Assembly: GCA_000004985.1 (NCBI GenBank)
Contig: GG738851.1
Strand: one strand, 5' to 3'
DNA from: Naegleria gruberi
Lineage: Eukaryota
Length of the DNA stretch: 64,000 bases
Below the pieces are notes generated by a model that was not told the DNA's origin, made no database searches, and saw nothing but the letters and a program-made list of their open reading frames with translations. A program made the position numbers and the translations under genes. Shown here one piece after another: positions 16-59,952 of the stretch (positions within the stretch are counted from its first letter, which is position 1; each line of letters starts with the position of its first letter).

Positions 16-1623
16 ATGGCCACTGTTCAACAAGATACAATCATGATGGACAAGATGAAACAACAAGAAATACAAGTTGATGCTGGTGGAAATCGTCTTA
101 AGAAGGTTAATACTGATAATAATTATTTAATGTTTAAGGAACAAGTGTATACTAAAGTTCCAGATGATAGAGAAATGAAGAAGAGAATGAAAGAAAAGTT
201 GGTCGCTGAACAAAAAGTTATTCAAAAGAAGATTGTTTCGTATGAGAATATGAAGAAGCAAATTGTAGAATCCAAGTTTGAATTGGATCAATTTGAGCAA
301 AAGTTAAAATTGGTTGATGAGTTGATGGAACTAATGGAGAAGAATCAAATTAAAGTGGATGAATTGGAAGAGAAGATTCAAGAAATTGGAAAGACTCAAT
401 TGTCATCTTCCATGTATTTTGAATTTTCATCAAAAGTTCCAGAATTTGTTAGGGCAGATCCAAAACCATTCATTCTTAAGATTAAGTATATTATCAGCAA
501 GGGAAGATTCAATTGGACTCCTCAATATTTACTCTCAGTTGATAGTAGTACTCAAACTGGACAATTAATGTTTATGGCGAATGTAGTTCAAAAGACTGGT
601 GAGAATTTCACAAATGCTCTGGTTGAATTATCGACAGATGAATTAGGACAAGCTCCAAGCATGCCAGAATTCAATCTGTTGACTTTGGATCAGACAGACA
701 TTTACAAATATCTCCGTAAAACGAACAGTCCACACACATTTGCTGGGTCATCATTTATTAGCCTTACTTCTAAGAAACTTATGAGTGACCAAAGAAACTA
801 TCAAAATCAATTTGAGGGTGCGAATATTGAATCAAATCAAATGGATCAAAACTCACAGGTTTCCACAGATGTTATCAGATCTACCACTTCTTACATGATT
901 GCTGAGAGAGCTTCATTTATCACTGATTCAAATGGGTCAGACAAGACAGTTTCATTACTCATTGCCAAGATTAATCTCGAATCAAAGTGGTATCATAAAG
1001 TCATTCCAAAACAATCCTCAAGAGTCTACACAATCATGGCCATTAAGAACAAATCCAAATATCAACTAATCCCAGGTGATGTTAATATTTTCATTAATAA
1101 TGTTCTTTCCACACAATCAAGAATCAAATCAGATGTCTTTCCAGATGATGTCTTCCAATTAGATATCGGTATTGATAGAATGGTCTCTGTGAAACTCAAT
1201 GATCACAATAAGAATGAACAAGAATCAGGTTGGTTCTCCAAAACCAATTCCATCACTGAAAATTCACAAATTACCATTGAAAACAAGAAGGATGTTCCAA
1301 TCAATATTACAGTTATCAATGCTTTACCATTCACAGAAGATTGGCATACAGACGATAAGTTACAAATCATCCTCACTCAACCAAAGACAGACCAAGGAAA
1401 GGATATTGATTTACATGAAATTTTCCTTCCAAAACCAGGTCCAGATGGAAAGGACACATTCTATCCAACTGAATATCAATTCAACACCAAGGTTGGTAAA
1501 AAGGATATGAAATGCAAGATTAAAAAGAGAAATCATGCATTAGAACGAAACTTTTCCATTTCTTCAAAGGAATCAATTGTATTGCCATTGTCTTTTCAAA
1601 TGTGCGTCACTCTTGCAAAATAA
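16..1623 (+). CDS. hypothetical protein with N-terminal coiled-coil (K/E/Q-rich heptads) and a C-terminal globular region; single exon; start may lie upstream of the window
   Basis: Uninterrupted 535-codon ORF beginning 15 nt from the window edge. Residues 1-130 have coiled-coil-like composition. No motif I can name with confidence. Confidence 0.55.
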   Translation: MATVQQDTIMMDKMKQQEIQVDAGGNRLKKVNTDNNYLMFKEQVYTKVPDDREMKKRMKEKLVAEQKVIQKKIVSYENMKKQIVESKFELDQFEQKLKLVDELMELMEKNQIKVDELEEKIQEIGKTQLSSSMYFEFSSKVPEFVRADPKPFILKIKYIISKGRFNWTPQYLLSVDSSTQTGQLMFMANVVQKTGENFTNALVELSTDELGQAPSMPEFNLLTLDQTDIYKYLRKTNSPHTFAGSSFISLTSKKLMSDQRNYQNQFEGANIESNQMDQNSQVSTDVIRSTTSYMIAERASFITDSNGSDKTVSLLIAKINLESKWYHKVIPKQSSRVYTIMAIKNKSKYQLIPGDVNIFINNVLSTQSRIKSDVFPDDVFQLDIGIDRMVSVKLNDHNKNEQESGWFSKTNSITENSQITIENKKDVPINITVINALPFTEDWHTDDKLQIILTQPKTDQGKDIDLHEIFLPKPGPDGKDTFYPTEYQFNTKVGKKDMKCKIKKRNHALERNFSISSKESIVLPLSFQMCVTLAK

Positions 1624-2194: not shown

Positions 2195-2331
2195 TAAAGC
2201 TATGCATGAAATGAAACTAATCAAAATGAAAGAAAGTTTACAACAAGATTCTTTCGGAAAATTAATGGACAATTTCATAGCTTTTAAGGACGGGAAATTT
2301 CTCCTGGATTGTGTTTTTAAACAGTTTCAAT

Positions 2332-3207
2332 ATGAAAAAAATGTTCAAACTATTCGAATCAAGCCAACATACCAATCTTTATTCCAAGTTTCGTCCAACT
2401 TATCCTTCCACTTTATACGACAAGATCTTTCCTCTAATTTCTTCCACAAATTCCGAAGCTGGACTAAACATTTTAGATGTTGCTTGTGGAAGTGGTCAAG
2501 CTTCCTTTGATTTGGCTCAGAGAAATTGTAAAGTTTTGATCGGAGTTGATCCTTCGAATAATCAAATCGTCAATGCACAAGAAAAATTGAAAGAATGTCC
2601 ATTAGATTCTACCAAGATTTATTTTGAAGTGGGCAAGGCAGAAGAATTAGATACTATCGTTCAAAAATATTCGAATGAATTGAAAGTGGACGAAAGTAGT
2701 GATGAGCAAGGAGTTTTTGATTTAATTACAGTTGCACAGGGTTTGCATTGGTTTGATTTCCCTCAATTCTTCCAACAAGTTGACAAGTATCTCAAGAAGG
2801 GAGGTGTTTTTGCTGCCTGGTGTTATGTTGGAAATAGATTCGACTCGGAGAAAGCTCAGCAAGTTCGTAATTCGTTTTATGATGGCGAAGAATTGAAACC
2901 ATTCTGGAGTGAGAGAAGAGAATTGGTCGATTTGGAATATAAAACTATTCCACATGTTCCTTATCCAGAGAATGTTAAATTCGATATTGAATGGAAACAT
3001 ACAAAGATGAGTATGAGAAATTATATGAATTATATTAATACGTGGAGTTCTGTCAATTCGTATGGAGAAAAACATGGTATTGAAGCAAAAAACAAATTAT
3101 TGGAAGATTATCAAAATAGATTGATGGAAGCTTTTGGTTTTACTGACATTGATCAAGAATTTGATTATCACATTCCTTATCATTTACTTACAACAAGAAA
3201 ACCTTAA
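2332..3207 (+). CDS. SAM-dependent methyltransferase (Methyltransf_11 type, Tmt1/Crg1-like)
   Basis: ORF 2311..3207. The likely start is the internal Met at 2332 or 2341. Motif I is LDVACGSGQASFDLAQR. The N-terminal YSKFRPTYP element is typical of the trans-aconitate methyltransferase-like family. The stop lies only 30 nt from the stop of the convergent protease gene. Confidence 0.75.
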   Translation: MKKMFKLFESSQHTNLYSKFRPTYPSTLYDKIFPLISSTNSEAGLNILDVACGSGQASFDLAQRNCKVLIGVDPSNNQIVNAQEKLKECPLDSTKIYFEVGKAEELDTIVQKYSNELKVDESSDEQGVFDLITVAQGLHWFDFPQFFQQVDKYLKKGGVFAAWCYVGNRFDSEKAQQVRNSFYDGEELKPFWSERRELVDLEYKTIPHVPYPENVKFDIEWKHTKMSMRNYMNYINTWSSVNSYGEKHGIEAKNKLLEDYQNRLMEAFGFTDIDQEFDYHIPYHLLTTRKP

Positions 3208-3237: not shown

Positions 3238-6172
3238 TTAGATTGTAATAAAAAGTGTAATTATAAAGAAAATAAGCAAGGAATAGGACAAGACAATTCG
3301 GCCTGTTCCAGAAATGATTATGTCATCTGCTGGAATATCTATAGGACTTGCTGGAGTTTCAGTTCGAGAAACATCTCCAGTAATCACCATACTGAAAGTT
3401 TGAATACCCTTGTTTGTTGGTTTGGCACCAACTCTGATGGCAATGGATGTATCTTTGGCAATGCCTGGAACAGTGATACCTTCAACAGTATTCAATACAT
3501 CAATACTGGTTCCATTGTTACCGAAATAATTGATACCTCCTAAACTGACAATAAGATTAAGATCATTGATTAACTTCTTTTCCTTAACTGTTGAGCTGGT
3601 TTCAACTTGGGAAGATAAATCATACCAAGTCATTGTTACCTTAAGAGTGGTGGCTGAATTGGCAACAAATTTCATTTTGATTTGTTTGTTGGCATCTAGA
3701 GAATATCTGTTGACAAGATGAATTTCCTTAATTCTGTTAACACTTGAGGGGTCAGAGTCAATCTTGAGAACATTTAACAAATCGATTCTTCCGTATCCAT
3801 TGTACTTATTTGGAGAGCCAAATTGTGAGAGAGGAACATTAACAGAGTTAATTTGAACTGTTCCTTTCATTGTATCTGCAGAATGAATGGCCATGGCCTT
3901 AACCAACGTTCCAGCCAAAGTCTGTGAAGCATCCTTATTAAAAATATTATAATCAATCAACTTTTTCTTGTTGTCTTTTAACAAGTAATGTCTAATAAGA
4001 GCCAATCCTCCAGACTATAATATTATAAAAATTAATTAGAATTACCAAAGAGAACACTTACCACTCCAGGAGTACTAACAAACCACAAAGCACAGTATTA
4101 ATATGTAGATAACAGTTTGTTAAATAATTCTATTAAAGGGTTAAAATCAGTACATACCTCATTGATGTACCAGTCATTTGCTGAACTCCACATGAATCCA
4201 CATTACTTGCACTCATTATCCCATAACCAGGGGCAACAACTAAATGGTTCAATTACAAGAATAAATAAGAAACATACTATCAGGTTTGATTCTCTCATCA
4301 TACGTAGGTCCTCTACTCGATAACCCCCAAACATTTTCAAAGTTGTACAACGTGGTCCATGCATTATTGAAGAATTTCTTATAATAAGCTAATGTTGCAT
4401 AAGAGGCTCCGACTGTTATGACATTCTTTGCAGTTGCTGGAGCTCCCAATGTCCTATCAGAAGCGGATGTACCTTCATTTCCTGCAGCCACAACCACAGT
4501 CACTTCATCATTGGCATTCAAGAATGAATCCATAATAGCACTATCTGTATCATAGGCATTACAATAGTGACAACAACGAACACCTGAATCTTTGATGCAT
4601 TGATCATCTGATATCTTTTCTTTAGTATTATCACTTTTCACAATGTAGCAATCACAATCAAAATCACACTATAATGAAATTGTTATTTCATCTTCAAACT
4701 TTTTGAAATATTGAAATACTTACAGTATATGGAAGTGCACATCCCCAACTATTGCTTGAAATTTTTGCACCTGCCTTAAAGGCATTCTTTAAATTTGCTG
4801 TTATATCTCCTACATACAGACTTCCATAGGCTTCCTTCTGGGCATCCAAAGCATAGATTTTTGCATCCTTGGCCACACCATAATTTGAGGAAACAAATTC
4901 TGAGGTTGGTATTGTCTGTGGATAGCCAGCAATAGTTCCAACTACGTGTGTACCATGTCCATTAGTATCACTCAAATCAGTCTTATCAGCATCAGCTTTT
5001 CCATAGTAGATAATCTTTCTGTAGTTAGCATTGAGAGTGGTCTTGGTGCTTGGCTCATTAGTTCCAGTGAAAAAACAGTGATCTGTTGAAACACCAGTGT
5101 CAATGACAAGAACAATTTCAGAGGCGCCAGTAATTCCGTTATCCCATAAATAAGTATAATTAGAACCACCTCCATTTTGAATTACTTGATTAGTTCCATA
5201 ATTCTTAATTTCATAACTCAATTGTCTGGAGACCATATCCACTGAATCGTCATTGGTTAAAAATTCCAGGAATGCCTGCCCAACACCTTCTGATAATTCT
5301 CTAATAAATCTTCCAAGTGATGAACTTCTTTCAAATACCTTTTGAACTTGCTCTCTCTTTGTCAAGGATTCAACCAATGGATGATCGAATTTCCTTTGTT
5401 TTATCAATTTCCAAACTCCATAATCAAAATTTGCAAGAGTGATTTGAAGTCCTTGACTATCCACATTCCAATCCATTGAAAATAAAGAGTCTGTTTGTTC
5501 TTTCAAGAATTCCTTAACCTCGAATGTGTTTCTCTTATTATTCGAATACTCTAACTGACTAATATCTTCAGACTGAATTAAAACCGATGACATTAAATTT
5601 GACATGGTTCTTGTATAAGTTGAAGAGTACCAATTTTTCAATCGATTCATGGTTTGCAACCTCTCCATTTCATTCAATTTAGTATCAAGCTTGATTCTCA
5701 AACCATAAAGTTTTAAAGATTCTAATGAAAGATTTGAAAATGATCGTTTGTCAGAGTTGGTTACCTTCTTGATCCATTCAATAGATTTCTTTGCAAAATA
5801 ACTTTTAGTGAGTTCCTTAATTTGTTGATGAGAAAGCCTTGTTGTGAAAACAGAGACATCGGAATGAAATTGAAATTCCTTATAATTTTCAACCTTCATC
5901 AATGTTGCCATTCTACTCAAAAATTCATCATTCATAACAATATAATCCCACACCTTCACATGAACCAACATTCTATTATTTAAACTCTTCTCATCAGGTG
6001 TATTCACTCTAAACTTGTTCATCAAATTTTCCTCAGTGGCGTATCGTTCTACAATAGACGATCCTTTTGCTGAGGCCTCCAAAATTGCCATCAGAAAAAA
6101 CAATAAAAACACTGCTATCAATGTGATACACACACTGATTTTTCTCGCTGAAAATTCCCGAGTCATTTTCAA
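3238..6172 (-). CDS. subtilisin-like serine protease A (S8 family) with a long N-terminal pro-region and a hydrophobic C-terminal tail; 5 exons
   Basis: Exons on the minus strand: 6172..4724, 4668..4278, 4239..4158, 4074..4062 (a 13-nt micro-exon) and 4014..3238. Donors are gtaagtat, gtatgttt, gtatgtac and gtaagtgt. Acceptors are ttatag, atttag, tgttag and attatag. Catalytic motifs are VIDTGVSTDH, HGTHVVGTIAG, VVAAGNEG and GTSMSTPGVSGG. Phases are consistent across all junctions. The protein is about 903 aa. The C-terminus LLIFFIITLFITI looks like a GPI or TM signal. Confidence 0.8.
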
Positions 6173-7165
6173 TAACGATGAACCTTAATGCCTTTTTTTT
6201 CAATTTATTAAAATGACTTTCCCGCGCATTTTTCCTTAATTGAATATTTTCGACCAACAGAAAGATTATGAACTTTTATTTGTTTATCTTTCGGGAATTG
6301 TTTTTTCTTTGACACCAAGATCATCATGCTTTTTCCTTTTTTTAAACTTTAAGGTCATATGCTAATGAGTTGTGCATCTACAGATATTCGAACACTGTAG
6401 ATTATTCGGTAAAGAGGTTTCGAATATTGAATCATGAAACATCTGCAAGGATGAAAAAGGGAAATCTATGAATTAATATTTTAAGTTACTGAATGACCAA
6501 ATTGAAATTAACTAGTTTTATTAGTGTGGGTTAGTAATACATTCTTTCCAAATGCATGATTTGTTTGATGCCACATCTCAGGAGATATGATTTTAAGCAA
6601 TTTGGAAAACAACTTTTTTGTGTTTTAAAGTGCTTTATTTTGAAACAACACAAGAAATCAAACAATCTTTTGATAATTAGTTGAAGATTCAGCCAACTAT
6701 GATATCTTTTCAAAGAACATCAAGTCTTTATTCTATAATTGTCTAATCCTTAAAATTTTCATCTCACTTTCCAGCAAGAACCGTAAAAAACCTTTCGGAT
6801 TGAAGAGGTGAATAGTAGCTGTTGTGTTCGTACGAATACGATCTGTACATGTATTACTCTCGACATGTGCTGCTCGCGTCCCAGTTTCATAAACAAAGTA
6901 TTCTATTGGAGGTTGTATGACAGGCCTTTCACCTCCCTTGATGGCTTCTACAGCTACAACCTCAAACAACATTAGTCTTAATTCGTATTTTTCAGATGTT
7001 GTATGAGTATAGGGGATTACACCTTAAACTTTTTATCTCCAAACACTAAAAGAAACTAAAAAACAAAAAAACAAGACGATGATATCAACTCGAAATTTCA
7101 TCTCTGTCAATTGTGGTAAGATGATTACTATCAGCTGCAGCAACCAATGTTTATCGTATGTCCTC

Positions 7166-10100
7166 ATGTTGAGCATGCTTCTTTCCATACTTATTGTTTC
7201 AACAACTGTGGCTCAGGAAAGCTTTGTTTCAACTATTGCAGGTGGAGGTGTATGTGATGGTTATTTAGCAACTCAAGCCTCATTGGCATATCCTGGATCA
7301 CCAACTATTGGTCCAGATGGTTCAATTTATATAGCAGATAGTTCAAATCACAGAGTTCGTCAAGTTTATCCGAATGGTACCATTACTACCATTGCAGGAA
7401 CTGGAATTTCAGGTTATAATGGTGATGTCATTCCAGCAACGAGAGCTCAATTGAAAAATCCTGTATCAGTTGCTGTTAATTCGATTGGAGAAGTTTTCAT
7501 AAGTGATAATGGAAACAATAGAATTAGAAAAGTATTGACTAATGGTACAATTATTACTTTTGCAGGAAGTGGACAGACAACTTTTTCAGGAGATTATGGA
7601 TTGGCCACCAATGCAGGAATTAACTATCCCTATGGTATTGCACTCACTAGTATTGAAGAATTGATTATTTCCGATGTAAATCATAATAGAATTCGTAAAG
7701 TTTTAACCAATGGAACCATCTATACCATTGCAGGAAACAATATTCAAGGTTACAATGGAGATAACAAGTTGGCAACAAGTGCTTCCTTGTTTCTGTCCTT
7801 TGGTGTTAGTGTTGATGCAAATGATAATGTCTACATTGCGGACACTGACAATGATAGAATTCGTAAAGTTTTAACCAATGGAACCATCTATACCATTGCA
7901 GGTATTGGAAATAGTGGATTTTCTGGGGATGGAGGTTTGGCAACTGCAGCCAAGATTAGCTCTCCTGAAGGCGTTTCAGTTTCTCCTGAAGGCGAAGTTT
8001 ATTTTGCAGGTTTGTAATTCTTTCTATTCGAAACTTTAACTTTACAAGATACAAGTAATAACAGAATTCGAAAAATTTTGACAAATGGTACAATTTTAAC
8101 TGTTGCAGGAACTAGTTATGGATTCTTAGATAACACAACTGCCAGTCTTGCACTGCTAGGAAATCCTGGACAAATGTTCATTGACAAGAATAGTGGAGAT
8201 GTGTATTTTGCTGATAAAGGAAGTCACAGAATTAGAAAGATTTCTAATGGATTTATTACTTCTGTTGCTGGTTCAGGTTCTGCAACTTTTTGTGGCGAAA
8301 ACATTGCTTCAAGTGCATGTGCTTTAGCTAAACCAAAAGGTGCAGTCATTGATTCATTAGGAAATATTTATATTGCTGGTAAGTTTTATTATAACATAAT
8401 CATACGAATCCTCTTCTTTGCAATATATAGATACAAACAATAATCGTGTGAGAAAGATATCATATTTGGATGGTACCATTAACACCATTGCTGGAACAGG
8501 AAGCAATGGTTATAATGGAGATGGTATCTTGGCAACAAGTGCACAACTTAACAGACCTTCAAGTGTTGCTATGGATTCGGTTGGTAATGTGTTTGTTGCA
8601 GGTATGTACTTCTTTCTATTGGAAACTTTAAATTTCTACAAGATACAAGTAATAACAGAATTCGAAAAATTTTGACAAATGGTACAATTGTAACTGTTGC
8701 AGGTGTTGGATCTAGTGGTTTTAATGGTGATATTTTGGCAACAGATGCAAAATTGAGCAACCCTGTTTCAGTCACTATTGATTCGAATGATAATGTTTAC
8801 ATTGCCGATACTTACAATCATAGAATTCGAAAGATTTTACAGAATGGAAATCTAACAACAATTGTTGGATTAGGATCGAGTGGTTTTAATGGTGATTATC
8901 TATTATCAAACGGAACCAAATTAAACTATCCACAATCCATAGCATTTGATTCGAATGGTAACATGTATATTGCAGGTAAGTTGTTTTTTGTAAACAACTA
9001 ATCAAGTGAAAAATTGATTCCACTAATGACACAGATATGAACAATAATCGAATTAGAAAAATGTTAACTAATGGAACTATTATCACAGTAGCAGGAACAG
9101 GCGTTTCAGGTTATAACGGAGATGGAATATTGGCAACTGTTGCTCAACTCAAATATCCACAAGGAATTGCAATTGAAAATGATGAATTGATTATTGCTGA
9201 TTCTTCAAATCATAGAATTCGTAAAGTATTAACAAATGGAACAATTATCACCCTTGTAGGAACAGGTACTTTGGGATACAGTGGAGATGGTCTGGTTGGA
9301 GCCAATTCACAAATTAATAACCCATCAGGAGTCGTTGTAAAACAAAATGGTGAACTAATTGTTATTGATTCGGATAATAGTAGACTCAGATTGATTTCCA
9401 CACCTCGTCAATGTAATGGAACATTGGCAAGTGATTCAAATGTGTGTAGTGGTGTTGGTATTTGTAGTGCACCTGAGACATGTGATTGTGGAAACTTGTT
9501 TGGTGGTCAATTCTGTGAATATTCCAAATGTTTCGGTATTCTTTCGAATTCATCAAGTGTTTGTTCATCACATGGAATGTGTATTTCCCCAAATACTTGT
9601 TCTTGTAATTCTGGTTTTTATGGATTGAATTGTCAAGTTATGAAATGTTTTGGAATTGAAAGTAATGACACTTTAGTTTGTTCTGGAAATGGAAAGTGTG
9701 TTTCTATTGATTCATGCCAATGTTCAAATGGTTGGTCAGGTTCAGATTGTTCAATTCTTTCATGTTTTAATATCATGGCCAATGATACTGCTCAAGTTTG
9801 CAGTGGACATGGTAATTGCTCAAGTGTGGATAAATGTGATTGTGAATTTGGATGGTCAGGATTGAATTGTTCTGTAAACTCCACAATTCCAGAAACCAGC
9901 AACTCCACAATTCCTAATAACGACACCTCAATCAATACCAATGGTACTATTTTAAACAATTCTTCCACTACTAATGCCACTAGTTCAAATACTACCATCC
10001 CAACTACTAATCAAACTTCACCTCACTTGAATAATTCTTCAACAATTCCAGAAACAAGCAACTCCACAATTCCAAATAACGACACCTCAATCAATACCAA

Positions 10101-10548
10101 TGGTACTATTTCAAATAATTCTTCCACTACTAATGCAACTAGTTCAACAAATAATTCTTCCACTACTGATAGCAATAACAGTACACAAACAAATTCCACT
10201 CTTACTGGACAAAATTCGTGGAAATGTTTCGACATTCCAAATTCGGATTCGACAGTTTGTGGAGGTCATGGAATTTGCATTTCTCAAGATGTTTGTCAGT
10301 GTAAGGCCACTTCAGAAGATGGATATTGGACTGGATCAAATTGTACTTCATGTCAAACTAATTATTGTGGAAGTGGATGTAGAAGTAACATTTGTTCGAC
10401 CAATAATAACATGTATGCATTATTTACCTTAATGGCTGTTCCAGTAGTTGGAGGAATTGGATTAATAGCAGGTTTGGCATTTGGATTGAGATGGTGGTTA
10501 TTGAAACGTCCACAAATGATGAAAACTTCCACCCCTTCTGTAGTTTAA
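7166..10548 (+). CDS. type I membrane protein: signal peptide, about 14 NHL repeats, 5 tenascin-type EGF-like repeats, N/S/T-rich mucin-like stalk, TM helix, short tail; 5 exons
   Basis: Exons: 7166 (ORF opens at 7079; the signal peptide MLSMLLSILIVSTTVAQ starts at 7166)..8009, 8049..8378, 8431..8601, 8643..8975 and 9035..10548. Introns are 39, 52, 41 and 59 nt (gtttgtaa..acaag, gtaagttt..tatag, gtatgtac..acaag, gtaagttg..acag). The NHL motif [YF]IADxxNxRIRK[IV]LTNGTI recurs. The EGF pattern is C-x-G-x-G-x-C-x5-C-x-C-x2-G[WF]-x-G-x2-C. The TM segment is MYALFTLMAVPVVGGIGLIAGLAFGL. Confidence 0.8.
9883..10147 (+). repeat. tandem coding repeat (two near-identical copies of about 106 nt, period 159 nt) in the mucin-like stalk of the NHL/EGF gene
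   Basis: Copy 9883..9988 against copy 10042..10147. They encode IPETSNSTIPNNDTSINTNGTI(L/S)NNSSTTNATSS with only a few nucleotide differences. Confidence 0.7.
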
Positions 10549-12373: not shown

Positions 12374-15357
12374 TTACATGAGAAAGTTAATAATCGAAAT
12401 GATCAAGATTAAGATAAGTGAACATCTAACATTTGTAGATTGTCCAACAACAGGATTTGAAAGAGAAGATGTGGCATTGATAACTTCAGTAAATGGACTA
12501 CCAGTTGATGGAATGGTAGTTGGAGCAGATGGTTTCTCTGCTAAGGTAACATCCCCAGTAATGACCATACTGAATGCTTGTTTTCCCTTATTGGTGGATT
12601 TGGCTCCAACCTTGACTGTGAAATTACCTTGTGGTAAATTGGAAATTACAATACTTTCTGCAGTGTTGACCGTATCGAGAGTGTTGCCTGTGATGGCTCC
12701 ATTTCCATAATAATATTTCTTTCCAACAACTGCGACAACACTAATGTCGTTGATGAGTTTCTTGGTTTTTACAGAGCTAAGTGTATCAGCAGCAGATGGT
12801 AAATCGTACCAAGCAATGGTAACTTTCAGTGTGGTTACAGAATTGGCCTTCAAAGGAATGTCAACTTGTTGATTGGCATCAAGTGAATATCTATTGGCTA
12901 CGAGAATATTCTTAATTCTGTTCACACTTGCTGAATCAGTGTCAATCTTCAAGACATTTTGTAAATTGATTCTTCCAAAACCATTGTACTTGTTTGGTGA
13001 GTTGAATTGACTCAAATACAAATCAGTACCTCCAATTTGCACAAATCCCTTCATGACTTCTCCTGAGTGCAGAATCATGGCTTTGACCAAAGTCCCTGAC
13101 AAGGTTTGAGAAGGTGAACTATTGAAAATATTGTAATCGACTAATTTCTTCTTATTATCCTTTACCAAGTAGTGTCTTACCAAAGCTAATCAATTATTGA
13201 AACATTAAATGTAAATAATTAAATAAAATCAATGCCAACTACTTACCTGCTGCTCCAGAAACTGCAGGAGTTGCCATACTATATATGCATTGAAAAAGAA
13301 ATGTTAAATAACAAAGCTACACATCTCAAAAGCACTTACCTAGTTCCAGATTTTCCTACAGGATCACAAGAAGCAGTATTCAAAGAACTGATTGTACTGT
13401 AACCTGGTGCAGCAACTGAAAAGATTAATGTTAAGCTTTCAATTGTCAATGAGTGAAATACTTACTATCTGGTTTGATTCTATTATCATAGGTAGGTCCT
13501 TTTCCAGAAAAACTAGCCATATTCTCAAATTCAAAAACGGTATAATTTCTGCTTGTAAAGAACTGCTTGTAATAGGAAGATGGTGCATAGGAAGCGCCAA
13601 CTGTCAATGAATTCTTTGATGTGGATGGATCTCCCAAATTGGAATCAGTTGAGTATTCACCATCGTTACCAGCAGCCATTACAACAGTCACTTCATCATT
13701 TGAACTCAAAAAAGTGTCAACTCTATTACTGTCATATCCATAAAGATTACAATAGTGACAACATCTGGTACCAGTCAATGCCATACAAGAGGCATCAGTG
13801 ACAGCAGCACCTCGAGTATTATCAGAATTCAATTCATAGCATTTACAATCATAATCACACTAATAATGAGATTCAAGTTGACTGATTTTTCATATTATGA
13901 AAACTTACATCATAAGGATTACCACATCCCCAACTGTTACTTGAAATTTTAGATCCAGCATTGGTAAATGCATTAGACAAAACGGTATTCATATCACCAA
14001 TGTATAATCCTCCATTTGCTCCTGCTTGCACATCCACTGCATAGAGTTTGGCATCCTTGGCCACACCAACATTCTTATCCATGACTGTGGTTCCAAGTGT
14101 TTGTGGATATCCAGCAATGGTTCCTGCTACGTGAGTGCCATGACCTTCTCCATCTGTCAAATCACCATACTGTCCATTCTTATTATAGTAAACGACCTTT
14201 CTATAATTCAAATTAACACTTGTCTTGGTGCTTGGTTCACTACTGCCAGTAAAGAGACAATGTCCAAGAGTTATTCCAGTATCGATAACTGAAACAACCT
14301 CAGAGGCACCTGTAATTCCATTATTCCACATGTAGGTATAATTGGATCCACCTCCATTTTGAATCACTTGATTGGCTCCATAATTCTTAATCTCATGAAT
14401 ACGTTGACGAATGACCACATCTACAGAATCATCACTCGACAAGTAATTTAACAATTCCTGACCCATCTCACTTGACATGTCCTCTATTAATCCTTCAAGT
14501 TCTTGATTCATCTTGAAGAACTTTTGAATTTCTTCTCTTCTTTTCAATGATTGAACAATTGGAGAATCAAATTTTCCTTCTTTGATCAATTTCCAAACTC
14601 CGTAATCAAAGTTTGCGAGTGTGACTTGAACAGCATGAGTTTCACTTTGCCAATCGAGGTCGAATAGAGAGTTGGCTTGATCTCTGATGAATTCACGAAT
14701 GATAGTTTCGTCTTGTTGAGTGGAAAGTGCAGTTTCGGCAAGTTTCGAATTATGAATGGATTGTTGAATTTGTTGAATGTTTAGTTTGGACAAGGATCGA
14801 GTCATTTTTTGAGTATAACTGGAAAGGTACCAATTTCTCAATCTATTCATCGTTTGCAATCTTTCCATTTCGTTTAGTTTACTATCTAATACAATCTTCA
14901 AGCCACCAAGTTTCAACGAATCCAAACTAAGTTTCGTAAATGATTTCTTATCTGAATTCGAAACCTTCTTGATCCATTCAATATTCAATTTAGCAAAATT
15001 ATTATTCGAAAGCTCTTGAATCTGAAGTGTTGTGAGTCTTGTAGTAAAAACTGGAATGTCGGAATGAAATTGAAATTCCTTGTAATTGTCAACCTTCATC
15101 AATTGTGCCATTCTATTGAGAAAGTCATCTGTCATGATGGTATTATCACGTATTTTGACATGTACGAGCATTCTTTGGGTGTTTGAAATTGTTTGTGTGG
15201 TTTGTACATTTAATTTTGGAGTGTTGGAAACTGTTTCGAATAAATTTTCTACATGGTTGTATGTTTCCAATAGTTTGGAAGGTTCTTGTTGTAGTGAGAA
15301 TCCAATGCAACAAAGGAGTGCTGCAAAAAGTATCAATTTGGCAGCACCTAATGTCAT
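12374..15357 (-). CDS. subtilisin-like serine protease B (paralog of A); 5 exons
   Basis: Exons on the minus strand: 15357..13909 (1449 nt, the same length as exon 1 of A), 13859..13466, 13415..13340, 13278..13247 and 13185..12374. Donors are gtaagttt, gtaagtat, gtaagtgc and gtaagtag. Catalytic motifs are VIDTGITLGH, HGTHVAGTIAG, VVMAAGNDG and GTSMATPAVSGAA. The protein is about 920 aa. The C-terminus ILILIISIINFLM is hydrophobic. Confidence 0.8.
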
Positions 15358-20896: not shown

Positions 20897-20967
20897 CTCG
20901 AGTGCCGGGAATTGAACCCGGGTCGCCAGAGTGACAGTCTGGAATGCTACCACTATACCACACCCGA
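20897..20967 (-). tRNA. tRNA-Asp (anticodon GTC)
   Basis: Reverse complement is TCGGGTG TG GTATAGTGGTAGCAT T CCAGA CTGTCAC TCTGG CGAC CCGGG TTCAATT CCCGG CACTCGA G. Cloverleaf with a 7-bp acceptor stem, TPsiC loop TTCAATT and anticodon loop CT-GTC-AC. It closely resembles eukaryotic tRNA-Asp. Confidence 0.85.
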
Positions 20968-34988: not shown

Positions 34989-35062
34989 TACAGCGAGCGG
35001 GGCTTGAACCCGCGACCTTAAGCGTGTTAGGCTTACGATCTAACCAACTGATCTATCGCTGC
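34989..35062 (-). tRNA. tRNA-Val (anticodon AAC)
   Basis: Reverse complement is GCAGCGA TA GATC AGTTGGTTA GATC G TAAGC CTAACAC GCTTA AGGTC GCGGG TTCAAGC CCCGC TCGCTGT A. The anticodon loop CT-AAC-AC is identical to eukaryotic tRNA-Val(AAC). The acceptor stem closes with a G-T wobble. Confidence 0.8.
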
Positions 35063-48857: not shown

Positions 48858-48863
48858 AAAAAA
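48858..48863 (-). terminator. Pol III T-run terminator of the 5S gene
   Basis: Oligo-T on the transcribed strand (plus-strand aaataaaaaaa) lies directly 3' of the 5S 3' end. Confidence 0.5.
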
Positions 48864-48981
48864 GACTACAGCACCACAGGTTCCCAAGTTGTCTCCAACC
48901 TCAGTACTGATGTGGCTCTACGATGCTTAACTTCTCAAATCAGACGGGATGAGGTGTATTCATCGTGATATGGCCGTAGCC
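48864..48981 (-). rRNA. 5S ribosomal RNA
   Basis: Minus-strand sequence GGCTACGGCCATATCACGATGAATACACCTCATCCCGTCTGATTTGAGAAGTTAAGCATCGTAGAGCCACATCAGTACTGAGGTTGGAGACAACTTGGGAACCTGTGGTGCTGTAGTC is followed by a T-run. It matches the eukaryotic 5S consensus blocks (CGGCCATA, CCCGTC.GAT, GAAGTTAAGC, AGTACT, GGGA.AC, GGTGCTGTAG), and helix I (GGCTAC/GTAGTC) pairs. Confidence 0.85.
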
Positions 48982-50070: not shown

Positions 50071-50363
50071 TTTGCTCTTAGTGTTTGTTATTTAGTTATT
50101 TTGTTTTGTTGTGGAAATATCATCATCCGATCAGTTATCTATTTATTTACAAGATGATTTCCACTAATTTTGTGATTCCGATTTTTAGTGCATCACAAGA
50201 ATTTGAATTTTTCTATTAATATTTTGATGAAAGGAAATTTAATACAAATCAACAAAACAAATTGAAGAGAAAATGAGAAACAAACAATTCAAAATGTGGT
50301 AAATCCTTTTAACTCCAATTTTGTAAACCTAAAGGCCTCCTGTAGATTTTTCTAAGACAAAAA

Positions 50364-50481
50364 GATTTCAGCACCACAGGTTCCCAAGTTGTCTCCAACC
50401 TCAGTACTGATGTGGCTCGACGATGCTTAACTTCTCAAATCGGACGGGATGAGGTGCATTCATCGTGATATGGCCGTAGCC
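50364..50481 (-). rRNA. 5S ribosomal RNA, variant or possible pseudogene copy
   Basis: Same orientation as the other 5S gene and exactly 1500 bp downstream of it. It has about 6 substitutions. Two fall in the 3' strand of helix I (GAAATC instead of GTAGTC), leaving two mismatches against GGCTAC. Flanking sequences are unrelated. Confidence 0.7.
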
Positions 50482-53669: not shown

Positions 53670-55351
53670 TTATTTGAGGCACATTCTAAGAGCAAATGCA
53701 TAAGCATGTGTCAAGGGTACCAAAGAACTGAACCAACTGTAATGACCAAGATAAGGTGAAAATGAAACAATTGTACAATTGACGAAAAGGAGTACAATAA
53801 AAATAAGGAACCAAATGTAAACTTCACCATCGTGTGGGAATACATATGAATTTTCCCTCAATGCCTTTAAAAAGTAGTGCAATACTACAAAGAACATAAT
53901 AATAAAGAACAACTCCAAAGGTATGGCTGAATACATGAGATAAAAACTGCTTGTTGTAAATTCGAGTCCAAATCCTAGCAAGATCACAAATGATTCCAAT
54001 AAAAATACAAGAAAATTGATACCAAAAGCATACCACAAAGTTAGTGGAGCTTTTGATCGATTCTCCTTAATAATACCAGTCGTAATGAAACATGTAGCTA
54101 TTGGAGCAGCAAAGCAAATTACCAAAACGTACAAGAATGGTACAATCAATACATAAAACCACGAGTAGGTATAAGTCCTAGAGGGAATTCCATCATGCAC
54201 GGGATTTTCAGTGAATGGTAACAAAACATTGACAAGGGCAAGAATGGCAATTATCATGAATGAAGCAACACCACCCATCGATAACAGAGCCGCGATCCAA
54301 AATCCTTCTCTAAATTCCTTCTCCTTCAAACAATCCAAAGTAATAAAGAATAGACCAGCAATTAAACAAATAGCAAACACAAACCACAAAGGTATGAATG
54401 AAAAAACTTGCCATCTCACACCAATAGCATTGTAAACCAATTGATCGACAGCATCTGTTATACCAGTCATGATAAAAAAGAGCAGGAATGAAAAATACAG
54501 AACTGATGAAGCACCAATAATAAATCTCCTAGTATTTGCTCTAAATTTCTCATGATATTTGGCCATAAATTCTCTAATTTTCTTTTCCTTTGCAATTCTT
54601 CTTCTTTCCTTATCTTGTTTCTTACCATGTTTAATGTGAAGTCCTCTCAAAGTTCCCACACTGATAATCTTGTTATCATTGTCAAATGTAACATAATCCT
54701 CCACTTTAATTATTTCAATAAATCCAAAAATTCAAAAATCAACAAACCTTTTGGTGGATGAGGTGGAGGTGGAATTGGTTTTCCATAAGGTTTCATATAA
54801 CTAATTCTCGTTCTCTCGCTCACATAGTAATTAATTTGTTCCGAATAAATCTTTTTAAACAGTTCAACACAATTCGAATACCACAACAAGTCATGCTTTG
54901 ATGATTCGTACCAATCTCTATTTACAAGTGAGGCCTCACTCAATGTTTTTTGATCTAGCCAGAGGAACATTTCTACCAAAACTTCTCCTGGAATATTATT
55001 CCATGTGTAATTTACATGAAATCCCGACAATATATTATCAGAATCGTTATTTTTCGAATGATTTGATCGAATGACAACTGAATTGTCCTTTCCAGTTGCT
55101 GATGGTGATTGAACAGCAACTACTACAGCATTATTTGAAATGGAAGCAGAAGGAGATGTTGAATTCATCATCTGCTGCTGCTCTTGTTGATTATCCAATC
55201 CGAGTGTTATCTGTTGATTATCAACAGCATCCTTATTTTCTTGTCCTTCTTCACCATCCATTTGTGGTGGTGCATTATCCTTCTGACTTTCCAAATCAAC
55301 AAATTGATCATCGGAAGTCATCTTGTCTAAAAAACCCAAATAATCAACCAA
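53670..55351 (-). CDS. F-box protein fused to a 7-helix integral membrane domain; 2 exons
   Basis: Exons on the minus strand: 55351..54748 and 54703..53670. The 44-nt intron is gtttgttg..aattaaag. The F-box is IPGEVLVEMFLWLDQKTLSEASLVNRDWYESSKHDLLW. It is followed by a PPPPHPP linker and then 7 hydrophobic segments. The protein is about 545 aa. Confidence 0.7.
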
Positions 55352-55681: not shown

Positions 55682-58600
55682 TTATTTTTTGATACCATAA
55701 CCACCTCCACCTGGTGTTTGAATAATGACACAATCTCCTGGTTCGACCTTGAAAGAGTTCTTTCCTCCTAGAGAGTGAATGAGACCTCTCTTGAGAATGA
55801 GTAAATTCTTTCCTTTTTGTCCATCTTTTCCACCTCTACAACCAGATGGTGAGAAGACTCTTCTCTCTGAGAGAATTCCAACTTGAAGTGGTTCAAGGAA
55901 TTCAACTTCTCTCACAACGCCATTTCCTCCTCTGAATTCTCCTTCACCTCCTGAATTTGGTCTCACGCTGAACTGTTTCAGAATGAGCGGATATCTTCTT
56001 TCGAGAATTTCAACATCGGTAATTCTGGTATTGGTCATGTGGGTGTGAACAGAGTCTTCTCCTTGATAGTCCTTTCCAGCTCCAACACCTCCACAAATAG
56101 TTTCATAATAGCCCCATGATTCATTACCGAATGTGAAATTATTCATGCATCCTTGACTACAGGCAGCTGCTGAGAATGCCTTAAGAATAACATCGGTCAC
56201 TCTTTGTGAGGTCAATACGTTACCTGCTACTACACCGACGATACCATCTTCACCAATATCTAAAAGTGAGTGTTTTTCAATCTTGATTGAGATTGGTTCC
56301 AGACATCCTTGATTGAGAGGAATGTCCTGTTTGACAAGACATCTCAAGCTGTACAAAATTGCAGAAATAGTAATGGCCTTTGGTGCACTAATTGACAAAT
56401 AGTTAGAATAATTGAAAAATTGATAGAGAATACTTACTTGGTATTACCTAAAAAATTTCAATTTCATGTAATATTCCAATAGTTAGTTCAATAAAAATTA
56501 AGAGCTTGGGTTAAAATAATATAATAATAAGCTACAAACCCAACATCATTTCTGAAGTTCCTGTGAAATCAAAGATTGCAACATGTTGCTTTTCAGAGCC
56601 GTTTCTAAAGTTTTCATGTTTTTGATTTTTGATTGTCAAATGCAAGTTGATTATTGATCCGTCATCCATAAAATCTTGGGAATGCAAGTCAATGCTGGCA
56701 GCATTCTTATCTTGTGAGTGTTCCTCAAATACTTGTTGCAACATTTCCTTGACTGCGTATTCTGCATTGTCCTGAACATATTGCATATAGCTTTGGACAA
56801 CTTCTAATGAATATTCATTGATGAGTTCTTGCAAAAGTGAAATACCTTTAGTATTAGAAGCAACTTGAGCTTTCATATCTGAAATATTATCCTTTATGGC
56901 TCTGGCACCTGCTTCTTTCAATAAATTTGTAATTCTCTCTTCTTGGAATTCACCATTTTCTACTAATTTACATGAAACAATTGCCATACCCTCCTCAGAT
57001 AGCAATCTACTGAATGGAGGCATTGAACCTGGCTGAATACCACCAATGTCAGCATGATGTCCACGATTGGCAACATAGAAAGCTACTTTTCCATTTGAAT
57101 ATACAGGAGTTATTACGGTAATGTCAGGCAAATGGGTGCCTCCAGCACAAGGGTGATTGGCTACAATTACCTCGCCTTCCTTCCAACTATCTCCCAGAGT
57201 TCTAATTTGATATCGAACTGCCTCACTCATTGAACCCAAGTGAACAGGCAAGTGTGGAGCATTGGCAAGGAGAGAACCATCTGGAGAGAAGAGAGCACAT
57301 GAAAAATCGAGTCTTTCCTTAATATTGGTTGAAGTTGATGTTCTTTGGAGGGATCTACCCATTTGTTCAGCAATACTCATGAAACGATGATTGAAAATAC
57401 TCAACCTAACAGCATCAACCTTCTTCAATTCATTCACATTGATTTCTTGTGTCTTTGTTGAGGAGAGAGTAATTTCCACATCACCATACTTGGTAATTAG
57501 AGCTGTTCCATGTGGTTCAACAACAATTGTAGTTGTGTCGTGAATAATAATAGCAGGGCCGTGAACCTTATCTCCAGCAGCCAAATGTTGCAAATCATAG
57601 ACAGCTGTCTCAGTCCAACCTTGTTCAAAGTATGTCTTGGTTGAGGTAATTGGTTTTGGCTCAGACTTAGATGAAGCAATTTCAATCTTACTGATGGATG
57701 GTGTAATACCAATACCTCTCACTCTAATATCATCGACAATGATTGGTCTTCCAACAACAGTAAATCCATATTCTCTCTTGTAGGATTTTTCAAATTCAGA
57801 TCTGTAATCTCCTCCAAGGATTGAATCTTGTTGCTTGGCCTCCTCTGGAACAGATGTCATGATTGAATAGTCGGTTCCCTTATACTTGAGATTGAGATAA
57901 TGTACAATTTTGATGTTGGAGTTGTCAAATCCAGAGTTTTTCAATCTCTCAACAACTCTTCCCTCGATTTCTTTCAATCTGTTGGAGAAGTATCCGAAAT
58001 TTTCCTCAGCATATTCTGCAGTACTTGGCTCTTGTTCATCCAAAACAACATCAGCAAGTCCCAACCCATAAGCACTCAAAATACCAGATTGTCTTGGAAT
58101 GAAAACCTTTTTCATACCTAAATTATTGGCAATAGCTTGAGCATGTTGTGAACCAGCTCCACCAAATGAACACAAAGTATGATCACGAGTATCATAACCT
58201 TTAGAAACTGTAATGGAACGAATTGGTCTTGACATGGCCTCGTTGGCAACTTGAATGAAACCATAGGCAACTTCTTCTGTTGTTTTGAGTTTGGCATTTT
58301 GTGGATCTCTCTTCAATTCAAAATCATTGACTTGTTTGGTCAATTCTTCGAATGCAAGTTTGGTGGCTTCATAATCGAGTGGTTGATCTTCAGTTTCACC
58401 AAAAATTTTTGGGAAGAATTCTGGTAATAATCTTCCAAGGAATAAGTTGGCATCAGTAATGGCCAAATGTTTGATTGGGAATGATCCTTGCTTTCTATAA
58501 CAGACTGGACCAGGATTAGCTCCAACAGAACTTGGACCAACTATTTCACAATTAAGAATGCTATTCGTGAAAATACATACCTTCAAAGATACCTGTCTTT

Positions 58601-59952
58601 TGGTTGAATGTCAATTTGGAGCCACCTCCAGCAGCAACTGTTGTGATATCCAGTTGAGGTGCTTGAATTTGAACTCCTGCAGTTTCAGTTTCAAAAACCA
58701 AATCAAATTTTCCTCCAAATCTTGATACATCAGTAGATGTTCCACCAATATCAATTCCAATAATTGGGATTTTATCATCTGGATTGTAGGATGTTGATGC
58801 AATAGCAACGATTCCACCAGCTGGTCCTGATAATATGGCATTACATCCCTTAAAATCTGAAGCAGGTGTAAGACCGCCATTCGATTGCATGAATGTGACA
58901 CGTTTCAACAACTTATCAAAATCTGAAAATCCAGAACAAAAGTTTCTAACATAATCCCTAATAATTGGGCTCAAATAAGCATCAACGCAAGTAGTGTGAC
59001 CTCTTGGAACTGCTCTAATCATTGGCATGGCTTGATGAGAGAGTGAAATATTTTCAATTCCAGCTCTCTTTGCAATTTCAGCAATTTGAAGTTCATGATC
59101 AGCAAATGTATACGAATGCAATAAAACTACAGCAATGCTATTAATTCCACTTTCTTTCAACTCTTTACAAGTATTATAAACAAATTCTTCATCCACAGTA
59201 TTTCTAATAAAAACTTCCTCTCCTGAAATACCCTTCTTTAATCTTTGATTTCTCCATTCTTCAGTAGAAAGTTGAGATCCTTCTGGTTCTTGGAATTTCT
59301 TACATTTTCCATAAACTTGCTCTGTGAGACAAACTCTTTCATCCACCTCAATCACTCTTTCATATAAAAGTGAAGGTTTTCTAATAAATAATTCGAAAAT
59401 CTTTGGACGTGCCTGATGTCCAATTTTAAGCAAATCACGAAATCCTTTCGTTGTAATCAAGGCACATCTAGATCCCTTTCTTTCTAGCAAGGCATTAGTA
59501 GCCACAGTGGTTCCCATTCTAATATATTCAATGTTATCAATATCAATTTCTTTAGCATCCTTCATTTGAAGTCCCAAAACTTTGTTCATTATTCTCTTAA
59601 TTCCTGAAATAATTTCATCACAAATGCAATTTAAATATTAATATTCAATATTATTACAAAAATATTAATCATAATATTACCTTCTCTCGGAGCATCATTA
59701 TAATGTTGTGGATCTTCACTCAATAACTTCATAACCACATAGGGTTGATAATTGTTATGAATTGTCTTGGGAACCTCTTCATCATCATGACGATCATCAT
59801 CGGAATTAAAAATCAAAAAAAAAATTAAATAATTCGTGATGCTGATGAAAACACAAACCTGCATAAATATCACAAAAGGTTCCTCCACGATCAATGGAAA
59901 ATCTGAATAATTGATTGGAAGCAGATCCACTACATTCGGAATTGTTGGACAT
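55682..59952 (-). CDS. OPLAH: 5-oxoprolinase (ATP-hydrolysing; hydantoinase A + B domains); 6 exons including a 10-nt micro-exon
   Basis: Exons on the minus strand: 59952..59859, 59776..59684, 59603..58581, 58540..56540, 56447..56438 and 56387..55682. Introns are 82, 80, 40, 92 and 50 nt. The protein is about 1308 aa. It aligns with the oxoprolinase blocks I recall along its length: [185 protein letters not shown] and TPGGGGYG. Confidence 0.85.

Follow-up and report, generated by a model that had tools for sequence, protein, structure and literature searches.

A 10-nt micro-exon very likely missing from the deposited 5-oxoprolinase gene model of Naegleria gruberi

How are two long open reading frames (ORFs) of the 5-oxoprolinase gene of Naegleria gruberi NEG-M joined in the mature mRNA? 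The gene occupies 55682..59952 on the minus strand of a 64,000-nucleotide (nt) stretch of contig GG738851.1, which we call the window and to which all coordinates refer unless another contig is named. Single-exon genes near it, looked up by exact sequence, assign the window to this strain. A preliminary description of this stretch, made from its letters, proposed that the upstream ORF 56532..58586 is linked to the downstream ORF 55682..56398 through an exon of only 10 nt, GTAATACCAA. The two ORFs, the 10-mer and the acceptor and donor at its sides are all found on the minus strand at the places given in that description. We infer, and strongly so, that this micro-exon is included in the main functional mRNA of the gene, a reading that we consider very likely. 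The deposited protein (XP_002681174.1 / EFC48430.1 / UniProt D2V3Y4; 1307 amino acids, aa) omits it.

Below, a slash marks an exon boundary and sequences are written on the coding strand. The last exonic base of the upstream ORF is the G at 56540, which is followed at 56539..56532 by GTTTGTAG. Further downstream, at 56450..56430, one reads tttttTAG/GTAATACCAA/GTAAGTAT: the acceptor of intron 4 ends at 56448 and the donor of intron 5, GTAAGTAT, begins at 56437. A second acceptor, caattAG, ends at 56388, and TGCACCAAAGGCC (..APKA) begins at 56387 in the downstream ORF. Spliced together, 56540, the 10-mer and 56387 yield a protein without stops, ...MMLGNTNAPKAIT, in which G 56540, GTAATACCAA and T 56387 together encode Gly1072-Asn-Thr-Asn1075 of a six-exon model of 1309 aa. 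If 56540 is joined directly to 56387, the frame shifts and a stop is met after 17 codons. A length of 10 nt is not divisible by 3, so an mRNA that skips the exon is unproductive, and thus the exon would have to be essentially constitutive.

The preliminary description held that the ORFs can only be joined via the micro-exon, which is incorrect. We enumerated all junction paths bounded by GT or GC donors and AG acceptors, with zero or one internal exon; 55 of the 279 paths are in frame and free of stops. The path products were scored against a hidden Markov model (HMM) built from 119 homologues. The micro-exon path is at the top of the 55 (934.3 bits), followed by a path that requires a GC donor and a 3-nt exon (929.2 bits); the path of the deposited model has 918.2 bits. 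With an independent profile, Pfam Hydantoinase_B (PF02538), the micro-exon model receives 645.5 bits versus 630.5 bits for the deposited one, and for the other three Pfam domains the scores of the two models are within 0.7 bits of each other. Paths that translate a part of intron 5 were ruled out by a 1-nt deletion at 56426 in a second strain (see below).

The residues concerned belong to a very conserved place of the protein. In the alignment of homologues the four motif columns have G in 107 of the 119 sequences, N in 116, a variable residue and N in all 119; then come A and an invariant P. None of the 119 sequences has a gap at the GNxN columns, and the final Asn of GNxN aligns with an Asn of a distant solved N-methylhydantoinase, 7hk5. 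Judged by this alignment, the micro-exon is predicted to supply the Gly-Asn-Thr-Asn of the near-invariant FDFxGT-x5-GNxNAP motif of the Hydantoinase_B domain; the earlier claim that the 10-mer adds G-N-T-N and restores the oxoprolinase motif with the right spacing is borne out by the lack of gaps in these columns. Since the columns are near-invariant and ungapped, the deposited model drops two residues that are almost never altered in the family.

What, then, does the deposited model represent? Its protein is an exact sequence match to an alternative model with a single 148-nt intron, 56535..56388, with donor TTT/GTAGCT; it reads ...MMLGFAPKAIT, having GF where the micro-exon model has GNTN. 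One may suppose that this model is right, i.e. that the 148-nt intron is removed and GTAATACCAA is merely intronic. Its path is in frame and without stops, and it is the model held in RefSeq, UniProt and EukProt. On the other side, this path is 15-16 bits lower on the two independent profiles, and its product is two residues shorter, without two invariant or near-invariant Asn, at a place where no homologue is gapped. With the evidence on splice sites and on a related species given below, we consider it very improbable that the deposited path is the correct one. The 1307-aa model is very probably a gene-finder artefact that uses an implausible splice site and is wrong at residues 1072-1075. 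The remark of the preliminary description that exons so short are often missed by gene finders applies here, as the RefSeq/UniProt model does skip the micro-exon. The 1309-aa micro-exon protein was not found in the public protein collection by exact-sequence look-up. We also observed that the cluster containing the 1307-aa RefSeq protein is represented by a 684-aa sequence, an ORF called in prokaryote style on a metagenome contig; because of this representative an ordinary homology search did not show the annotated N. gruberi protein, which surfaced only in the exact look-up.

The splice sites were scored with a matrix derived from 12 tightly bounded introns of the window, located between ORF segments filtered by codon-usage log-odds. 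These introns are 39-82 nt long and have donors GTAAGT (six introns), GTTTGT (three), GTATGT (two) and GTAATA (one). A matrix learned by expectation-maximization from all ORF junctions was discarded; it had converged on noise because of antisense ORFs. Ranked among all GTs of this strand, the donor of intron 5, GTAAGT, is at the 99.5th percentile with +10.5 bits and the donor of intron 4, GTTTGT, at the 96th with +5.4 bits. Intron 1 of this gene, accepted in the deposited model, likewise has GTTTGT as its donor. In the same ranking the GTAGCT donor of the deposited model, with −4.2 bits, is at the 30th percentile; it has neither a G at −1 nor one at +5, its score is that of a random GT, and the 148-nt intron that it opens is longer than all 12 curated introns. 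A CTAAC branch-point-like motif is present in each of the two introns of the micro-exon model, 35 nt from the 3′ end in intron 4 and 15 nt in intron 5. With sizes of 92 and 50 nt, to be compared with the 39-82 nt of the local introns, each intron looks viable alone by its signals.

A chance origin of this arrangement was assessed by shuffling the 152-nt intervening sequence. An AG-flanked and GT-followed 10-nt exon encoding G-N-x-N, with both introns required to be at least 30 nt, appeared in 4 of 200,000 shuffles. If a GT[AT][AT]GT donor is required in addition, there is one match on both strands of the 64-kb window, and it is the site 56447..56438 itself.

Further evidence came from a metagenome contig (L001) that is 98.9% identical to the window and represents a second strain. 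No base differs there in the micro-exon, at its splice sites or in the two CTAAC motifs, and the acceptor, 10-mer and donor stand in identical arrangement. In the oxoprolinase the two strains differ by 24 synonymous and 6 non-synonymous codons, and in the terminal exon by 5 synonymous and 0 non-synonymous ones. Such ratios point to purifying selection and to a functional gene translated in frame before and after the junction. In introns 4 and 5 alike this strain has 1-nt indels, the one in intron 5 being the deletion at 56426; the single-base indels of intron 4 indicate that it is non-coding.

These comparisons bear on the idea that the gene is damaged here, by a frameshift or as a pseudogene, with the micro-exon a chance match. 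The best outer splice sites, the donor at 56539 and the acceptor at 56388, are indeed out of frame when joined directly. Still, the codon differences between strains are mostly synonymous, downstream of the junction entirely so; all four Pfam domains are preserved; such an exon would be expected by chance with a probability of ~2e-5; and the arrangement is kept in the second strain, with the sequence being coding in a second species. We regard damage of the gene as extremely improbable. In the neighbouring F-box ORF, 54710-55351 on the minus strand, the second strain has two 3-nt in-frame insertions, at ~55273 and ~55157.

A comparison that we regard as decisive for inclusion of the micro-exon is offered by a 794-nt contig of a related species (L083), whose exons are 78-84% identical to those of N. 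gruberi at the nucleotide level and 92% identical at the protein level. The upstream exon of L083 continues through ...ATG ATG TTA GGT AAC ACA AA, with GGTAACACAAA contiguous with the upstream exon. A single 44-nt intron (GTAAGTAG...AAAATTAG) follows, after which the exon resumes with T GCA CCA AAA GCC; the junction ...ATGATGTTAGGTAACACAAA/GTAAGTAG..44 nt..AATTAG/TGCACCAAAA gives GNTNAPKAIT. Among the 14 joins without a stop it has the top score, with a lead of 20 bits. In position and phase the intron of L083 corresponds to intron 5, and the contig has no counterpart of intron 4. Opposite the micro-exon GTAATACCAA the alignment has exonic GTAACACAAA, which differs from it at two bases only, the third ones of the Asn and Thr codons. 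Thus the bases orthologous to the micro-exon are plainly exonic in the related species. The deposited model leaves unexplained why the 10-mer together with GTAAGTA matches the exon and donor of L083, with synonymous differences only. Near the end of the L083 contig (~727-794), after ...RRVFSPSG, we observed complete divergence from N. gruberi (TCTG/GTCAATTGCC...), which could be a species-specific phase-1 intron or a chimeric contig end.

A metagenome scan returned only contiguous, mostly bacterial loci, together with one contig of a more distant eukaryote (L003, JAESGV010000800.1; 39% GC) whose oxoprolinase is 58% identical. It has short introns of its own (Table 1) and no intron at the positions of N. 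gruberi introns 3, 4 or 5. The lengths of some of these introns are multiples of 3, and tblastn therefore read straight through them.

Several observations weigh against inclusion of the micro-exon or reduce the force of the evidence for it. The indels of the second strain fail to discriminate between the two models, as they fall also inside the single intron of the deposited model; in fact, the variation of that strain around the junction lies wholly within this intron, in agreement with the deposited path. A synonymous-only pattern over 10 nt, as seen in L083, is weak when taken alone (~0.07 by chance). Intron 4 has a donor, GTTTGT, of no more than moderate strength and a weak acceptor context (+1.9 bits). 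The matrix of 12 introns is small and its members were picked by us from ORF junctions, not fully blindly, hence its scores are supportive and not decisive. Finally, protein searches centred on the junction and on the tail of the upstream exon found no transcript-derived protein from N. gruberi that crosses the junction; the search centred on the junction did return the protein that led to contig L083.

It might also be that both forms occur, i.e. that the micro-exon is alternatively spliced and a sizeable share of transcripts skips it or uses the GTAGCT donor. In other organisms, exons of very small size tend to be skipped or to keep the introns beside them (PMC8831610). The signals of intron 4 are only moderate, and a donor-like AG/GTAATA stands where the micro-exon begins, GTAATA being the donor of intron 2. 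However, the skipped form is out of frame and the GF form is without the invariant residues, so that neither is likely to be functional, and from the purifying selection acting on the terminal exon it is clear that the productive form is of importance. We find a sizeable share of alternative forms unlikely. The mRNA junctions predicted under inclusion, under the deposited model and under skipping are listed in Table 1 with their diagnostic k-mers.

The 1309-aa protein encoded with the micro-exon has the full 5-oxoprolinase architecture in one polypeptide, with the Pfam domains Hydant_A_N, Hydantoinase_A, Hydant_A_C and Hydantoinase_B (PF05378, 182 bits; PF01968, 312; PF19278, 57; PF02538, 645). 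It is 55-61% identical to plant, animal and bacterial matches that are named 5-oxoprolinase or hydantoinase B/oxoprolinase. The ATP-dependent opening of 5-oxoproline to glutamate is its putative activity, as suggested by the best named matches and by the deposited name. Compared with 5-oxoprolinases of the OPLAH / yeast OXP1 type, in which Hydantoinase A and B are fused, it has the same four-domain architecture, length and motif spacing; once the micro-exon is included no difference is left at the protein level, and the deposited sequence has GF for GNTN. As to the gene structure, introns 1-4 (59859/59858, 59681/59680, 58581/58580 and 56540/56539) are all in phase 1 and each follows an exonic G, the exon ends being gca g/gt, gaa g/gt, gaa g/gt and ttg g/gt; phase 2 is seen in intron 5 only.

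Table 1. Features of the 5-oxoprolinase gene and of its predicted transcripts, with introns of the distant eukaryotic contig (window coordinates, except for the last four rows)
Feature	Position or sequence	Strand	Details
Exon 1	59952..59859	minus	common to deposited and corrected models
Intron 1	82 nt	minus	donor GTTTGT; common to both models
Exon 2	59776..59681	minus	common to deposited and corrected models
Intron 2	77 nt	minus	donor GTAATA; common to both models
Exon 3	59603..58581	minus	common to deposited and corrected models
Intron 3	40 nt	minus	donor GTATGT; common to both models
Exon 4	56540..58540, 2001 nt	minus	end of Hydantoinase_A, Hydant_A_C, first part of Hydantoinase_B
Intron 4	56448..56539, 92 nt	minus	phase 1; donor TGG/GTTTGT, CTAAC 56486..56482, U-run, TAG acceptor
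GTAGCT donor of deposited model	56530..56535	minus	inside intron 4 of micro-exon model
Micro-exon GTAATACCAA	56438..56447, 10 nt	minus	between AG acceptor and GT donor
Intron 5	56388..56437, 50 nt	minus	phase 2; donor CAA/GTAAGTAT, CTAAC 56406..56402, acceptor AATTAG
Terminal exon	55682..56387, 706 nt	minus	includes stop 55682..55684; starts (AA)T GCA CCA AAG = (N)APK
Predicted mRNA junction, micro-exon model	ATGATGTTGG/GTAATACCAA/TGCACCAAAGG		diagnostic k-mer ATGATGTTGGGTAATACCAATGCACCAAAGG
Predicted mRNA junction, deposited model	ATGATGTTGGGTTT/TGCACCAAAGG		diagnostic k-mer ATGATGTTGGGTTTTGCACCAAAGG
Predicted mRNA junction, exon skipping	ATGATGTTGG/TGCACCAAAGG		diagnostic k-mer ATGATGTTGGTGCACCAAAGG
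L003 intron	508-540		on JAESGV010000800.1; introns of 31-33 nt, GTAYG...TAG
L003 intron	about 2211-2241		as above
L003 intron	2365-2396		as above
L003 intron	2504-2536		as above

How could an exon of 10 nt have arisen? Intron 5 appears to be the older of the two introns and intron 4 the later one, because both are present in the N. gruberi strains and intron 5 alone in L083. In the simplest history, intron 5 would have been gained before the two Naegleria-like species split, and intron 4 would have been inserted later, in the N. gruberi lineage. We therefore lean to the view that intron 4 is a recent gain of this lineage at a G/GT site located 10 nt upstream of the older intron, leaving a constitutive 10-nt exon between them. 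In an alternative history intron 4 is ancestral and was precisely lost in the L083 lineage, with the neighbouring intron 10 nt away kept; such a history needs one extra event and an unusually short conversion tract. As a source of intron 4, tandem duplication of an AGGT segment was considered and rejected: the local alignment score of 22 was reached by 10.6% of shuffles, and unrelated introns score equally or higher in the same test. A search of the 64-kb window with intron 4 for copies of the introner type gave no match longer than 15 nt.

With regard to splicing, by analogy with plant micro-exons, a 10-nt exon would be too short to hold acceptor and donor complexes together. Each of the two short introns is most likely defined as a unit of its own (intron definition), and the two are probably spliced out in succession; whichever is removed first would fuse the micro-exon to a long neighbouring exon, making the second reaction an ordinary one. 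The consensus donor GTAAGTAT and the U-run before the acceptor of intron 4 would aid this splicing.

Exons of this kind are well documented in plants, where internal coding micro-exons of 1-15 nt are pervasively misannotated (Yu et al. 2022, PMC8831610); the 9-nt mini-exon of potato invertase is cited in the same work. The introns flanking plant micro-exons have stronger signals and are removed consecutively, usually the downstream one first (PMC8831610). The Naegleria exon is similar in its size class, in its location within a conserved domain and in being recoverable by homology to orthologues. It shares with the plant exons a consensus donor, a U-run before the acceptor and a clear branch motif, and here too the reference annotation missed the exon and compensated with an implausible splice site. 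It differs in that its host is a heterolobosean amoeboflagellate with few and very short introns (39-92 nt here), and in that the exon is predicted from sequence.

Micro-exons of animal neurons are SRRM4-regulated cassettes of 3-27 nt, mostly multiples of 3, with long flanking introns and dedicated enhancers. The Naegleria exon resembles them in being very short, in keeping the frame of the full transcript and in affecting few residues. In contrast, it has 10 nt, its skipping shifts the frame, and its introns are of 92 and 50 nt. There is also a likeness to recursive splice sites, or zero-length exons, of the Drosophila type: removal of intron 4 regenerates G/GTAATA, a donor-like sequence directly after the acceptor. 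Unlike at recursive sites, splicing from this new donor would lose the 10 nt and put the following exon out of frame, and the conserved coding content indicates that the 10 nt are kept.

The literature that could be searched mentions no micro-exon for Naegleria or for an oxoprolinase gene. Exons this small, and the annotation errors to which they regularly give rise, are well documented in plants (PMC8831610) and known in animals, and what is new here is the correction of the gene model. The very probable error of the deposited protein would affect alignments and structure models that use it, as well as metabolic reconstructions of the glutathione (gamma-glutamyl) cycle of Naegleria. The case suggests that annotation also overlooks exons of up to 15 nt in organisms other than plants and animals, with gene finders bridging the gap by non-consensus donors, and that homology-guided enumeration of paths is able to detect such exons. 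If the gain of intron 4 is true, the locus would present a dated and polarised birth of a micro-exon in an intron-poor excavate, as well as a natural test of the shortest exon tolerated by intron-definition splicing.

Some features elsewhere in the window were observed along the way. Matches above the Rfam gathering threshold indicate two 5S rRNA genes 1.5 kb apart, 48863-48981 and 50363-50481 (minus), and tRNA genes at 34989-35062 and 20897-20967 (minus), located among protein-coding genes. Two paralogous multi-exon genes, 3238-6172 and 12374-15357 (minus), are separated by ~9 kb; both have an intron with donor GTAAGT at the equivalent position (4723..4669 and 13908..13860), resuming with ...TTAG/tgt or ...ATAG/tgt. 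In the NHL-repeat/EGF-like gene at 7028-10546 (plus), the repeat units are each split at the same point, by very short introns of 39, 52, 41 and 59 nt with donors GTTTGT, GTAAGT, GTATGT and GTAAGT, all of which resume with AG/ATA.

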